Under the pieces are notes generated by a model that ran no database searches, was not told where the DNA came from, and saw nothing but the letters and a program-made list of their open reading frames with translations. Below, one piece after another: positions 7,418 to 58,500 of a stretch of DNA of 64,000 nt. Position numbers and translations under genes: made by a program. Source of the stretch: Escherichia coli (GTDB lineage Bacteria; Pseudomonadota; Gammaproteobacteria; Enterobacterales; Enterobacteriaceae); assembly GCF_003790525.1 (NCBI RefSeq), contig NZ_CP033635.1; one strand, given 5' to 3'. Position 1 is the first letter of the stretch. Every line of letters starts with the position of its first letter.

Positions 7418-8623
7418 ATGTTTCATCTCGATACTTTAGCAACGCTTGTTGCCGCAACGCTGACGTTGCTGCTCGGGCGCAAGTTGGTCCATTCCGTCTC
7501 CTTTTTGAAGAAATACACCATACCGGAACCTGTTGCGGGTGGTTTATTAGTGGCGCTGGCGCTGCTGATACTGAAAAAAAGCATGGGCTGGGAAGTCAAC
7601 TTTGATATGTCCCTGCGCGATCCGTTGATGCTGGCTTTCTTCGCCACCATTGGCCTGAACGCCAACATTGCCAGTTTGCGTGCCGGTGGGCGTGTGGTTG
7701 GCATCTTCTTGATTGTGGTTGTTGGCCTGTTGGTGATGCAAAATGCCATTGGCATTGGTATGGCTAGCCTGTTAGGGCTTGATCCGCTGATGGGGCTGTT
7801 GGCCGGTTCTATTACGCTTTCCGGCGGTCACGGTACGGGAGCTGCATGGAGTAAATTGTTCATTGAACGTTATGGCTTCACCAATGCGACAGAAGTGGCG
7901 ATGGCCTGTGCAACGTTCGGTTTGGTGCTGGGCGGCTTGATTGGCGGTCCGGTGGCACGCTATCTGGTGAAACACTCCACCACACCGAACGGTATTCCGG
8001 ATGACCAGGAAGTTCCGACCGCGTTCGAAAAGCCGGATGTGGGCCGCATGATCACCTCGCTGGTGTTGATTGAAACTATCGCGCTGATTGCTATCTGCCT
8101 GACGGTGGGGAAAATTGTTGCGCAACTTTTGGCTGGTACTGCTTTTGAACTACCGACCTTCGTCTGTGTACTATTTGTTGGCGTGATTCTGAGCAACGGT
8201 CTGTCAATGATGGGCTTTTACCGCGTCTTTGAGCGAGCGGTATCCGTGCTGGGTAACGTAAGCCTGTCGTTGTTCCTGGCGATGGCGTTGATGGGGCTGA
8301 AACTGTGGGAGCTGGCTTCGCTGGCGCTGCCGATGCTGGCGATTCTGGTGGTACAGACCATCTTCATGGCGTTGTATGCCATCTTCGTTACCTGGCGCAT
8401 GATGGGCAAAAACTACGATGCGGCAGTGCTGGCTGCGGGTCACTGTGGCTTTGGCCTTGGCGCAACGCCAACAGCAATCGCCAACATGCAGGCGATCACT
8501 GAACGCTTTGGCCCGTCGCACATGGCGTTCCTGGTAGTGCCGATGGTCGGTGCGTTCTTTATCGATATCGTCAATGCGCTGGTGATTAAGCTGTATTTGA
8601 TGTTGCCGATTTTTGCCGGTTAA
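7418..8623 (+). CDS. gltS: sodium/glutamate symporter
   Basis: 401 aa polytopic membrane protein matching GltS; synteny xanP-gltS-recG. Confidence 0.85.
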   Translation: MFHLDTLATLVAATLTLLLGRKLVHSVSFLKKYTIPEPVAGGLLVALALLILKKSMGWEVNFDMSLRDPLMLAFFATIGLNANIASLRAGGRVVGIFLIVVVGLLVMQNAIGIGMASLLGLDPLMGLLAGSITLSGGHGTGAAWSKLFIERYGFTNATEVAMACATFGLVLGGLIGGPVARYLVKHSTTPNGIPDDQEVPTAFEKPDVGRMITSLVLIETIALIAICLTVGKIVAQLLAGTAFELPTFVCVLFVGVILSNGLSMMGFYRVFERAVSVLGNVSLSLFLAMALMGLKLWELASLALPMLAILVVQTIFMALYAIFVTWRMMGKNYDAAVLAAGHCGFGLGATPTAIANMQAITERFGPSHMAFLVVPMVGAFFIDIVNALVIKLYLMLPIFAG

Positions 8624-52777: not shown

Positions 52778-53550
52778 GCGTTTTTCTCCCTCGAATGCTC
52801 ATTATGGTCACCAGGCAGGCGGGTAATGCGTGCATGGCGAGCTTGATCTTCATCGAATCGTTTCATGGTGGTGTGAACAAAGCTAAGGTGCGCCATCATT
52901 GCTTTACGCGCCCCGTCAGCATCACCGGCAAAAATGGCGTCAATGACTGCCTGATGTTGTTCGGTCAGCTGTGAAAAAACCGGGGGTACCAGATACATCC
53001 GCTGGCGGCTATGCTTCACGGAGGATTGCAGGACATCGAAGAAACCGCGCATGGTTTGCAGCAGCACGATGTTATGCGAGGCTTCGGCAATCGCCAGATG
53101 AAAACGAACGTCCGCTTGCGAAGCGAGGTCCGGGTCTTCGCTGAGCGTTGCTTCAAAACAAAGCTGAATCTTTTCTTTGTCGCCAGGTGTGGCGCGCATT
53201 GCCGCATGCCACGCGGTGCTGGCTTCAATGGCGTAGCGGGCTTCCAGAATATCGAAACTGTAATCCGGATCATCGGCCATCAGCGTTTTCAGCGGCTGGA
53301 CGATGTTTTGCTCCGACCATGTGTCATGACGCCAGCGAATAAACGTCCCGCCGCCACGTCGACTGAGCAGCACACCTTCGCTTACCAGTTTCGCCAGCGC
53401 CTCGCGCAGTGAATTTCTCGACACGCCGAGTTGCATCGCCAGTTGACGTTCAGCGGGCAACTTCATGCCCGCTTCCAGGTTTTTTTCATCAATCAGCGCC
53501 CGCACACGATCGGCAACCTCGTCTGACAGGCGTCTGGGTAAAACAATCAT
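52774..53550 (-). CDS. lldR: GntR-family L-lactate operon regulator
   Basis: 258 aa from [23 protein letters not shown]-track start 53565 is an upstream extension. Confidence 0.85.
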
Positions 53551-55205
53551 TAAGGAATCATCCACGTTAAGACATAGGCCTGAAGCGTGGTGATCACGCC
53601 CACCATACAGGTGAAGATCAGGCTGTGTTTGACAGTAAAGCGGAACAAATCAGACTCTTTGCCCACCAGGCCTACCGCCGCACAGGCGATAGCGATAGAT
53701 TGCGGGGAGATCATCTTACCGGTGACGCCACCGGTGGTATTGGCGGCAACCAACAACAGGTCAGAAACGCCAATTTGTTGTGCGGCGGTAGCCTGCAAAG
53801 CGGCAAACAAAGCATTAGATGACGTATCCGACCCGGTCAGGAATACCCCAAGCCAGCCGAGGAACGGCGAGAAGAAGGTGAATGCATGACCGGTGTGCGC
53901 CAGTGCCAGCGCCAGTGTTGATGACAAACCGGAATAGTTCGAGATAAAGGCGAATGCCAGCACCATACCGATGGAGTAGATGGGCAGAGCCAGTTCTTTC
54001 AGCGTGCTGCCGAAGGTGCTGATAGCGTCAGATGGTTTCATCTTCAGCCAGACAATCGAGAGCAGGGCAGCAAACAGAATGGCGGTACCGGTGGCAGAGA
54101 ACCAGTCAAACTTAAACACGGCGGCATACGCTGTCGCTTCGCTGACCACTGGCGGCATACGGGCAACCAGTTTATCGAGGTACGGCACCGGAATGTTGAT
54201 CACCCACTCATACAGCGCACCGCCTGAAGCGAACAGGGCTTTAAACGGCGGGATACTCCACAGCGTTACGGTGGCGGTCAGGAACAGGAACGGTGTCCAG
54301 GCGCGCAGCACCTGACCTGCCGTGTAACCTGTGTGAGCCAGCGTCATATCAACCTGTGACGCCCCTAAGTCACCGAAGCGGAATACGCGCACTGGTTGCC
54401 AGCGTTTGAGGAACAGCGTCAGGCAGAGCAGTGATACCAGCGAAGAGATAATGTCTGGCAGTTCCGGCCCAATGAAGTTAGAGCTGAGGTATTGAGCAAT
54501 GGCAAACGAACCACCTGCAACCACGACCGCAGGCCACGTCTCTTTGATACCGCGCCAACCGTCCATAATCGCCATGATCCAGAACAGCACGATAATGGTC
54601 ATAAACGGCAGCTGACGCCCCACCATCTGACCAATCTCAAAGCTGTCGATGCCTGTTACCTGCCCGGCGACCAGAATCGGAATACCCATCGCGCCAAATG
54701 CCACTGGTGCGGTGTTAACAATCAGGCACAGTCCGGCGGCGTAGAGTGGTTTAAAGCCCAGACCGACCAGCAATGCGGCGGTAATTGCTACCGGTGCGCC
54801 AAAGCCTGCGGCTCCTTCAAGGAAAGCGCCGAAACAGAAACCGACAATCAGCATTTGCAGGCGCTGGTCAGGGGTTATCGAAAGAATAGACGAGCGGATG
54901 ATGTCAAACTGCCCGGTTTTCACCGAGATCTTATAGACGAACACCGCTGCAATAATGATCCACGCGATGGGCCACAACCCGTAGAAGAAGCCATAAACCA
55001 CCGAGGCCAGCGCGTTAGCGACCGGCATTTTATAGAACAGCAAAGCCACGGCAAGGGCGATTGCCACCGTCCATGAGGCGGCGACGTATCCTTTCAGTTT
55101 GAGCTTAATCAGCGCAAAGAAGAAAAACAGGATGGGAAGCGATGCTATCAGGCTGGAAAGCCAGATATTCCCGGCGGGATCGTAGTTTTGTTGCCAGAGA
55201 TTCAT
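53550..55205 (-). CDS. lldP: L-lactate permease
   Basis: 551 aa from [22 protein letters not shown]; polytopic membrane protein. Confidence 0.88.
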
Positions 55206-55403
55206 TGCAGGTCTCCTGCAGTCCACACACGCCGTGTAATGAGTCTGTTGCTCATCTCCTTGTCACACGTTGTGTAAAAGTGGCACTGCCAATTGTGTTG
55301 TGTAGGGATAATGACAATGGATAGTTAACTAAATGTTATGCATTAGCAACATTGATGTGAGTTTTAATTGGGAAATTGTGAACCAGAGGTCAGATAAGCG
55401 AAG

Positions 55404-55420
55404 AATTGGTAGGGCCAATT
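55404..55420. promoter_or_regulatory. putative LldR/PdhR-type operator upstream of lldP
   Basis: AATTGGTAGGGCCAATT, an AATTGG...CCAATT inverted repeat typical of FadR-subfamily GntR operators, about 200 bp upstream of lldP. Confidence 0.45.
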
Positions 55421-55449
55421 CTTGGTGGAGGGAGATGTCTGGTAAAGAA

Positions 55450-55479
55450 AAGGGCAATCCTCATCAGAGAATTGCCCTT
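55450..55479 (-). terminator. putative terminator downstream of the adhesin gene
   Basis: AAGGGCAAT / ATTGCCCTT perfect 9-bp inverted repeat, 24 bp past the adhesin stop; weak T-tract. Confidence 0.45.
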
Positions 55480-55502
55480 AGTCACACTAAGTTAATGGAT
55501 CA

Positions 55503-58500
55503 TTACCACTGAATACCGGCACCGAGTGCGGCGGAGTATTCACCCTGGCTATTGGTACTACCTTGTAATTTGTAGACCCAACGACCATTGGCGCTCACCA
55601 TCGACACACCTAAAGCAACAGCCGATTCACCGTTGTAAGTACCACCACCAATAGAGGCCATGCTGGCTCCCGGCGTGTAAGCCTGCGGCAGACCGGTCAT
55701 TGCCATTGCGGAAGCGATACCACCGCTCAACTTGCTTTCGGTTTTGGACAGTTTGTTATCCATCTCAACCATGCGCTGATCGGTGTATTGCTTCGTTTCC
55801 TGCACACTTTGCTTCAGCTGCGCATAGTTCACCGCGTCGTTGTTGTTCACGCCAGCAGAAACGTTGCTGATGCGAGTCGTACCGCCATTTCCGCCACCGA
55901 GAGTGATGTTGCTGTAGTCGATAGAGCCATCAGCTTTGGTGTCGTAGCGAACGCCGCCTGCTTCAGAAGACTTCAGTTGTGAAACGTTAACCGCATCGGT
56001 GGCATTAACACCGGCAGCAACGTTGGTGATACGGCGCTGGTTGGTAGAAGAACCCACAGAGATGGTGTTTTCTTCGTTGGCCACGGAACCGGTACCCAGC
56101 GCGACGCTGTTGTCAGCGGCAGCAATGGAACCAGAACCAATTGCAACACTGTCTTTACCCTGCGCGTTGGCATCTACGCCATCGGTGTTGGTCTTGAAGT
56201 ATTTGGTGCTACCGGTGGTTACGATATCGCCAATGCCGTTTTCGATATTGGTCACGCGAGTATCCAGATTCGTCACCTGATTGTTCAGGTTAGTAATGCT
56301 CTGGGTATTCTGGGAAACCTGCGCGTCCGTTACTTTCAACTGACCCACGTTAACCGCATCGGTATCCGCTGAACCAGCCGCGACGTTGGTGATCTGACGT
56401 TGACCGTCTTCACTGCCGACAGAGAACTCACCCACAGAGTTCTGTGGTGCGTCCATGTTGTAGGCGCTGTAGTTGGTCTGCGCACCACGGGTAGTCTGAG
56501 AACCATTCCCCATTGCAATGCTGTTTGCATGGTTTGCACTTGCGTTGCTACCGATAGCAATACCATTGATCGCATCAGCCAGAACTAAAGTGTTCAGGCC
56601 GATACCAATACCCGCATTACCATTAACGATGGTTTTTGCGCCCATTGCCAGCGAGTCTTCACCGACTGCCAGTGAGTCTTCTGCCGTTGAGTTGGCGTGA
56701 TAGTACTTGGTTGGCGTAGTGGCGACCGCGCCAATAGCGTTTTGCAACTGGCGAACCGTAACGGCGTCATGGGCTTCGGAACCATCGGCTACGTTGATGA
56801 TTTGACGATATTTACCATCGTCACCGATCGACAATGCGCCAAGCAGTTCACCATCAGTTGTGTCATAACCAATCACAACACCTTCTTCCGACACGCTGGT
56901 GTCACGAGAACCTTTAACTATTAAACGGCTGGAAACGGAACTGCTACCCAGGGCGATACCCGTCTCAACTTCGCTGCGGCTGTCCTGACCAATGGCTACG
57001 CTGCTGGCTTTGGAAGCAACAGAGTTATAACCCACTGCTGTAGCGCCAACACCCTGTGCGCTGGCATCGGTGAAGGTTAAACCGGTGTCATTGGTACGCA
57101 CATAGTTAATACCTGCACCATTTTCTTCGATGTAGGTTTCACTGGTGTTACCAGCAAGCTGATTAATGACTTCGCTGTTCTGCTGGATCAGCATATTGGT
57201 GTTAAACAGCTGAGAACCGTTGATAGCATCGGTGCTGCCTTCCCCGATATTACCATCAGCGACATTAGTGATGATGCTGGCTTTGCCATCATGACTGGCG
57301 TTGTAAGCCCCTTCGCCGTTATTGGCTGTCGCATCCCACAGCAACGCGTTCTCATCAAGCGCATCCAGAGCTTCACCGACGTTGTTGTAATCGGTATTTG
57401 CAATGGTGTAAGTCGGCGCAGTGATAGTGCCGTCAGCGTTGACTTCTGCGTTACCGCCCAGCGCATCAGCGATGTACTTATTGGTGGTATAGAGTTGTGA
57501 GCCGTTAATCGCGTCGCTGCTGGTGGCAGAGATTGCACCATTTGCGACGTTAGTAATCTTACTGGCGGTGTTATCTACCCCGCGACCGGCGCTGAATGCA
57601 CCAGCACCGTCATTGGCTGTCGCATCCCAGAGCAGGGCATCACCGAGAGAATCACTAAATGAAGTGTTAATTGCGGCCAGAGCATCCCCGACGTTAGTGT
57701 AGTCAGTGCCGCCAATACTATAGGTTGGCCCGGTTAATACACCTGTATCGCTAATATCAGCACCACCACCCAGATAGGACGTGAATGAATCAGCCAAACC
57801 ATATAGTTGTGAGCCATTTATGGCGTCAGTGCTGTCAGAGGAGACTATGCCAGCTTGTACGTTGCTGATTTTGTTGGTGGCGTTAGTACCGTGTGCAGCG
57901 GTGAATGCGCCTGCGGCGTCGTCCCATTTCAGGGCGTCTTCACCGAGATTATTCACCGTATCAGTCAGGTTAGTGATATTGGTGGTGTTAGTGGCGATAT
58001 TGGTGGTGTTGGTCGCCACGTTATCGTTGGTGGTTTTCAGCTGGGAGCCGTTAACCGCGTCAGTGCTGCCAGCAGTCAGGTCGCCAGCGGTGACGTTGGT
58101 GATTTTGCTGGTGGCATCGGTGCCGTGCGCGGCGCTGAATGCGCCAGCCGCTTTGTTCCACAGCAGGGAATCATCACCAAGACTGTCAACAGCGTTAGTC
58201 AGGTTGGTGATATTGGTGGTGTTAGTGGCGATATTGGTGGTGTTGGTCGCCACGTTATCGTTGGTGGTTTTCAGCTGAGAACCGTTGACGGCGTCGGTGC
58301 TGCCAGCAGTCAGGTCGCCAGCGGTGACGTTGGTGATTTTGCTGGTGGCATCGGTGCCGTGCGCGGCGCTGAATGCGCCAGCCGCTTTGTTCCACAGCAG
58401 GGAATCATCACCGAGACTGTCAACAGCGTTAGTCAGGTTGGTGATATTGGTGGTGTTAGTGGCGATATTGGTGGTGTTGGTCGCCACGTTATCGTTGGTG

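Follow-up and report, generated by a model that had tools for sequence, protein, structure and literature searches.

The closest described system is the lldPRD (lctPRD) promoter of Escherichia coli K-12. In the K-12 model found in the literature, LldR dimers bound at two operators, O1 and O2, loop the DNA and repress transcription; lactate frees O2, and O1-bound LldR activates. Aguilera et al. in 2008 reportedly mapped O1 to -105 to -89 and O2 to +22 to +38. The K-12 yibL/lldP spacer is the top LldR peak in gSELEX, and the 17 bp LldR box consensus is AAnTGGTCnGACCAnTT, to which O1 scores 12/14 and O2 10/14; the two boxes listed for this spacer, AATTGGCCCTACCAATT and AAGTGGCACTGCCAATT (PMC10272880, Table 1), agree with the pair of sites that Aguilera et al. 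had defined. The listed PdhR boxes also include O1, with 13/14 agreement to the consensus, and lldPRD mRNA is up 3.3-fold in a pdhR mutant (PMC7660256, Anzai et al. 2020). An ArcA operator and the -35 and -10 elements have been placed between O1 and O2 (PMC8689689).

A second described system, the sadBA/upaG/ehaG locus, adjoins lldP. This locus is reportedly also treated by Valle et al. in 2008 and Totsika et al. in 2012. In Salmonella, Escherichia and Shigella it consists of SadB and an ESPR-containing YadA-type autotransporter encoded between yibL and lldP; SadB and the sadBA operon have been described, with a gap of 44 bp between Salmonella sadB and sadA, and the deletion of the adhesin pair (~5 kb) from K-12 is already published (PMC3953254, Grin et al. 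2014). Operators, regulators, adhesin locus and K-12 deletion had all been described beforehand, and nothing of substance in the locus reported here is new.

The window analysed here is a stretch of 64,000 nucleotides (64 kb) of E. coli DNA, with annotation taken from the RefSeq record of E. coli SMS-3-5 (NC_010498.1), to which 55000-55800 is 100% identical. The gene order is mtlD-mtlR-yibT-yibL-sadB-like-adhesin-lldPRD (RefSeq annotation), and yibL, the sadB-like gene, the adhesin gene, lldP, lldR and lldD are all on the - strand. Positions 55206-55502 constitute the whole 297-bp intergenic spacer from the adhesin stop codon (55505-55503) to the lldP ATG (55205-55203), and lldP, lldR and lldD are intact downstream of it (RefSeq, with matching ORFs in the window). 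The spacer is very probably the canonical lldPRD (L-lactate utilisation) control region, preceded by an insulating intrinsic terminator. The features of the region are as follows.

53550-55205, - strand: lldP (L-lactate permease), gene 1 of lldPRD (RefSeq; ATG at 55205-55203 checked).
55278-55294, no strand assigned: LldR operator O2, AAGTGGCACTGCCAATT on the + strand, with one mismatch to AATTGG-N5-CCAATT and the same as in K-12.
55321-55349, - strand: putative lldPRD core promoter TTGCTA-N17-AACTAT, from which transcription would start near 55315.
55324-55338, + strand: ArcA-type box GTTAACTAAATGTTA, 14/15 to GTTAATTAAATGTTA, between O1 and O2.
55404-55420, no strand assigned: operator O1 of LldR, which doubles as a PdhR box; a perfect palindrome, AATTGGTAGGGCCAATT (exact match; equal to the published boxes).
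55442-55479, - strand: predicted intrinsic terminator, a stem-loop at 55479-55450 plus a U-tract at 55449-55442 (fold, tail and conservation).
55482-61435, - strand: variable segment of 5954 bp holding the sadB-like and adhesin genes plus AT-rich upstream sequence; ~95 bp of REP remnant in K-12-type strains.
55503-60152, - strand: trimeric autotransporter adhesin of 1549 aa, UpaG/EhaG/SadA locus (Pfam; RefSeq 'YadA-like family protein').
60196-60879, - strand: SadB ortholog, an inner-membrane lipoprotein export helper (PDB 4c47; RefSeq DUF3251).
61069-61098, - strand: promoter-like site TTGACA-N18-TAAAAT (11/12), candidate promoter of the adhesin operon (consensus scan only).
61437-61799, - strand: yibL (annotation); its stop codon is the other edge of the variable segment.

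O1 and O2 are letter-identical to the two LldR boxes of the K-12 spacer (PMC10272880, Table 1). Both lie inside the single spacer with a centre-to-centre distance of 126 bp, and the interval between them has no indel relative to K-12; at ~12 helical turns, this spacing suits looping. O1 is centred 207 bp from the lldP ATG, and O2, whose complement reads AATTGGCAGTGCCACTT, sits 72 nt upstream of the ATG within the putative 5′ leader. Two boxes at the K-12 spacing, together with intact lldR, lldP and lldD, are the features of an LldR-regulated operator pair, and LldR would be expected to bind here, since binding and lactate induction are shown in the literature for the identical K-12 sequence. 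An exact copy of the 17-mer of O1 also precedes lldP in Citrobacter, Kosakonia, Klebsiella, Enterobacter and other Escherichia species, and it is conserved there across at least six genera in a survey of relatives made by scanning one genome per species for this 17-mer (tblastn LldP matches were used for position only).

An earlier sequence-only reading had placed a palindromic operator-like site at 55404-55420, about 200 bp upstream of lldP; those coordinates are exact, and the distance agrees with the 207 bp measured. The weaker second site that it put at 55281-55297 exists, but the position is off by 3 nt, the true coordinates being 55278-55294. Its assignment of the palindromes as lldP operators is borne out by their sequence identity to the published K-12 LldR boxes (PMC10272880; PMC7660256), and its description of the lldP regulatory region as intact is likewise sound, with no K-12 difference falling within O1, O2, the ArcA-type box or the hairpin.

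Natural operator variants occur upstream of lldP in E. coli GN02270, where O2 is AAGTGGTACTGCCAATT, nearer the GGT consensus, and O1 has a changed flank after the site and C as the final base of the palindrome.

ArcA recognises a direct-repeat box with the consensus GTTAATTAAATGTTA. The box at 55324-55338 is the only match in the window at ≤2 mismatches, where 0.17 are expected, and is invariant in six E. coli strains; as a direct-repeat box overlapping the putative promoter it is a putative ArcA-P operator. The putative core promoter is placed by position: the coordinates attributed to Aguilera et al. for O1 and O2, applied here, would both put the +1 site at ~55315. A sigma-70 consensus scan gave no strong core promoter match between O1 and O2, and a weak match is as expected for an activator-dependent promoter. 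Two K-12 differences, at 55341 and 55345, fall in or beside the putative -35 element, so promoter strength could differ slightly from that in K-12.

Regulation is expected to follow the K-12 work. LldR dimers would bind O1 and O2 and loop out the core promoter, resulting in repression; with lactate, repression at O2 would be lifted and LldR on O1 would activate. PdhR would additionally bind O1, and in anoxia ArcA-P would repress through the 55324-55338 box that overlaps the core promoter. The hairpin at 55450-55479 would stop transcription arriving from the upstream gene (sadB-like/adhesin here, yibL in K-12), and this terminator would leave lldPRD governed by its own promoter.

On the - strand the hairpin reads AAGGGCAAUUCUC-UGAU-GAGGAUUGCCCUU, then UUCUUUACC. 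It has a stem of 13 pairs (6 G-C, one G-U) and a 4-nt loop, folds at -20.4 kcal/mol alone, and is present in the minimum-energy fold of its context (z-score of -3.76 for the 81-nt context). The sequence after the stem on this strand is TTTTCTTT, and the terminator tail, counting from the last two stem bases, is UUUUCUUU; the U-tract has 7 U in 8 with one C interruption. AGTCACAC, the sequence after the stem on the + strand, holds no U-tract, so the terminator form exists on the - strand only. The hairpin begins 23 nt past the adhesin stop codon, ends 29 nt before O1, and is unchanged in K-12 and O157. In a small alignment of 7 rows (five Escherichia, Citrobacter youngae and the Salmonella family consensus, with two loops padded by hand), 96.7% of cells are paired and three inner pairs are changed on both sides (UCUC/GAGG versus GGCA/UGCC); the covariation score is reached by 0 of 500 shuffles, and all slid registers are far worse. 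These are the properties of a good intrinsic terminator, and efficient termination is predicted from them. The K-12 Term-seq supplements searched for measured 3′ ends (PMC7815308) have no yibL or lldP rows, and a literature search found no paper linking yibL, lldP and a terminator.

A terminator-like hairpin likewise lies between yibL and O1 in genera without the adhesin. In Citrobacter lacking the adhesin, CCGGGCAA...UUGCCCGG-UCUUUCC occupies the same position after yibL and has the GGGCAA/UUGCCC core in common, which suggests that the hairpin may have started out as the terminator of yibL, the adhesin pair having later come in between the two. The succession of upstream gene, terminator, O1, promoter, O2 and lldP is a general enterobacterial layout.

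Several further structures were noted around the hairpin. An imperfect inverted repeat (55410-55431/55459-55480; 22 nt, 73%) was considered as an alternative RNA structure and rejected as weak; it is 3′ of the terminator and therefore cannot act as an anti-terminator. It pairs the right half of O1 and its flank with the distal hairpin arm, and reflects the similarity of GGCCAATT and GGGCAATT, probably by chance. In E. whittamii (about 8250-8353 of its locus) only the promoter-proximal hairpin arm is left, joined to a 62-aa adhesin fragment, the result of an independent deletion that destroyed the terminator. Escherichia sp. E1V33 and MOD1-EC7003 have a different repeat (…GCCCCTCACCCTAACCCTCTCCCC…) beside O1 in place of the hairpin.

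The spacer had been described in the sequence-only reading as lying next to an adhesin insertion, the junction being put no more than some 30 bp from the lldP control region and the hairpin at 55450-55479 being taken as the 3′ hairpin of the adhesin gene. Alignment with K-12 (BLAST and global), which that reading had proposed, runs from within lldP to 55481 and resumes at 61436 beside the yibL stop codon. It fixes the presence/absence boundary at 55481/55482, 2 bp past the hairpin and 61 bp past the distal edge of O1; the junction is thus 61 bp from O1, and only the gap between hairpin and O1, at 29 bp, approaches the figure given. The hairpin coordinates are exact, but its attribution to the adhesin is not upheld: K-12, without the adhesin, aligns through 55481 and retains the hairpin, which thereby belongs to the conserved lldP-side flank. 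The word insertion also fails against K-12, which is the deleted form, as shown by the published deletion (PMC3953254), the REP remnant in K-12 and the adhesin-lldP adjacency in relatives. Relative to K-12, the stretch 55206-55481 carries nine substitutions and a single 1-bp indel, all outside the sites. The K-12 promoter therefore shares the O1 and O2 sequences, the 126-bp spacing, the ArcA-type box and the upstream hairpin; it differs by these changes, two of them near the putative -35, and in its upstream neighbour, which is yibL plus REP there and the adhesin operon here.

The K-12 junction is common to 1262 of 5426 complete E. coli genomes, and the adhesin 3′ flank is found in 4149 of the 5426 (~76%). 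In O157 (ehaG), Nissle (upaG) and two further strains the adhesin stop codon is set apart from the hairpin by one or two REP elements, 70-125 bp in all; K-12 retains the hairpin-proximal REP, and homology is lost inside that repeat cluster. At the other edge, the yibL stop codon is the precise point from which K-12, O157 and Nissle are again homologous. The adhesin adjoins O1 in E. albertii, in Escherichia sp. E1V33 (a cryptic lineage) and in C. youngae ATCC 29220, and in Salmonella STM3691 (sadA) and lldP are adjacent with a homologous spacer. The adhesin pair is thus an old resident of the yibL-lldP gap in Escherichia and Salmonella, ancestral to E. coli and lost from K-12-type strains. In Klebsiella, Kosakonia, Enterobacter and most Citrobacter, yibL is directly followed by a hairpin and then by O1; since these deep outgroups are without it, the sadBA-type pair was gained at some point in enterobacterial history. 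An insertion would hold only on this deep timescale, the pair having been gained once, long ago. For annotation of this strain the correction is that the species carried the adhesin ancestrally and that K-12 represents its deletion. Because the K-12 deletion and the allelic replacement in other strains both end just outside the terminator, strains that have the adhesin and strains that lack it share one lld control region, and the position of the terminator on the conserved side of 55481/55482 explains why equal regulation of lldPRD is expected in both.

It is vanishingly improbable that O1 and O2 are chance matches to a palindrome with no regulatory role. Such a reading could draw on the two-mismatch matches to AATTGG-N5-CCAATT, which are at chance level in the 64-kb window (7 versus 4.55 expected), but O1 is the sole zero-mismatch match there, the 2 matches at ≤1 mismatch compare with 0.30 expected and are reached by 4 of 100 shuffles, and the retention of the exact O1 17-mer upstream of lldP in at least six genera would be left unaccounted for. 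It is refuted outright by the published K-12 binding data, both sites being identical to sites bound experimentally by LldR. A different element is proposed by Rfam family RF02055, according to which 55379-55488 would encode a + strand antisense sRNA homologous to the Salmonella candidate STnc380. The full model (1-108) does match this interval on the + strand, with 28.9 bits and E 5e-4 to 1.5e-3; in Salmonella LT2 the candidate is listed for the corresponding STM3691/lldP spacer, and the family consensus contains both the O1 palindrome, modelled as a stem-loop, and this hairpin, which has an outer stem of GGGCAAU/AUUGCCC. However, 28.9 bits is far under the gathering score of 60, and what the model draws as two 'stems' corresponds to the O1 palindrome of LldR, accounted for as a DNA operator, and to the terminator hairpin, accounted for as a - strand terminator. 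The + strand hairpin runs into AGTCACAC and so lacks a U-tract, and a consensus scan of 55000-55700 finds no + strand promoter-like site. The Salmonella candidate, which is annotated as antisense to both flanking genes, is a computational prediction only, with 0 cDNA reads in both libraries of the source study and no northern probing in it. An sRNA at this position is extremely unlikely, and RF02055 is probably a model of an operator and a terminator read from the wrong strand, a caution for users of the STnc380 family.

With the terminator and operators retained as the preferred account of the spacer, there is still the proposal that the adhesin was inserted beside the lldP control region with a 3′ hairpin of its own, and that read-through couples expression of the adhesin and the lactate operon. 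The adhesin gene and lldP are co-directional and 297 bp apart, the single C in the U-tract could permit some leakage, as at any intrinsic terminator, and the deep outgroups in which yibL abuts the terminator and O1 indicate that the pair was once gained. Even so, the proposal is decidedly unlikely. The hairpin of K-12, which has no adhesin, cannot be adhesin-borne, and the difference between the two strains is a K-12 deletion; in K-12 the hairpin stands behind yibL, so the question of read-through is equally one about yibL there. The strong stem (-20.4 kcal/mol), the 7 U in 8 and the compensatory changes argue against substantial read-through, and most adhesin-bearing strains add 70-125 bp of REP between the adhesin stop codon and the hairpin. 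In addition, upaG and ehaG were reportedly found by Totsika et al. in 2012 to be silenced by H-NS, and with such silencing and a 35%-GC promoter region there would be little adhesin transcription able to read through. It is very unlikely, too, that once H-NS silencing is lifted (e.g. in the host) some adhesin-operon transcripts pass the terminator and give LldR-independent expression of lldPRD. If this did occur, read-through would tie surface adhesion to lactate uptake in adhesin-bearing lineages, a link that K-12-type strains would have lost.

The adhesin locus itself has the attributes of a sadBA-type operon, namely YadA-type architecture, SadB upstream and a position between the mtl and lld operons, and is assigned to that type from these. 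Pfam identifies YadA_anchor (4.9e-19), YadA_stalk (3.2e-127), YadA_head (7.5e-30) and ESPR (1.7e-16) in the adhesin, and the genes in this position carry the names upaG (Nissle) and ehaG (O157). The SMS-3-5 allele differs from the described ones in its length of 1549 aa. The sadB-like protein matches PDB 4c47 ('inner membrane lipoprotein') over residues 23-227 with E 7e-69; a Pfam search of this protein gave no family, and NCBIfam gave only a sub-threshold match. The sadB-like and adhesin genes are separated by 43 bp. Unlike most E. coli, SMS-3-5 has no REP between the adhesin stop codon and the terminator (55479-55503). The spacing between stop codon and hairpin in Salmonella is ~24 nt (from a primer sequence in PMC3953254), and E. 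albertii has a REP; the REP-free state of SMS-3-5 may be ancestral, as the Salmonella spacing suggests, or a secondary loss. O157 has an extra 70-bp block flanked by the direct repeat (T)TGCCCTTAG.

Upstream of the sadB-like gene, the SMS-3-5 sequence is of the UpaG type, matching Nissle and not O157. The 557-bp gap between yibL and the sadB-like gene (60880-61436), compared with the Nissle and O157 loci (L051 6400-6956 and L052 6992-7549), is near-identical between SMS-3-5 and Nissle and unalignable by eye with O157 (EhaG type). As the break in homology is exactly at the yibL stop codon, the segment from yibL to the terminator acts like an allelic cassette, of which there are two or more divergent forms in addition to the K-12 null. 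GC content is 35-42% over the sadB-like gene and its upstream region, with a drop to 35-36% in 60600-61400, upstream of and within that gene, and ~52% in the adhesin gene. The low GC content and the near-consensus promoter-like site at 61069-61098 would fit an H-NS-silenced promoter.

Two minor observations concern this segment. The sequence AATTGGTTGTGCGAATG at 60998-61014 (+ strand), located after the promoter-like site and ahead of the sadB-like start codon, combines a perfect left half-site for LldR/PdhR with a poor right half (2 mismatches); this is at chance level, but the site is kept in Nissle and its position near the lld operon is curious. A 9-kb contig assigned to an 'uncultured Oscillospiraceae' MAG (CALXDF010000207.1) carries E. 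coli-type yibL, sadB-like, adhesin and lldP genes and an exact O1, with YibL and the adhesin C-terminus each 100% identical, and almost certainly derives from E. coli, having been mis-binned into a Firmicutes MAG.
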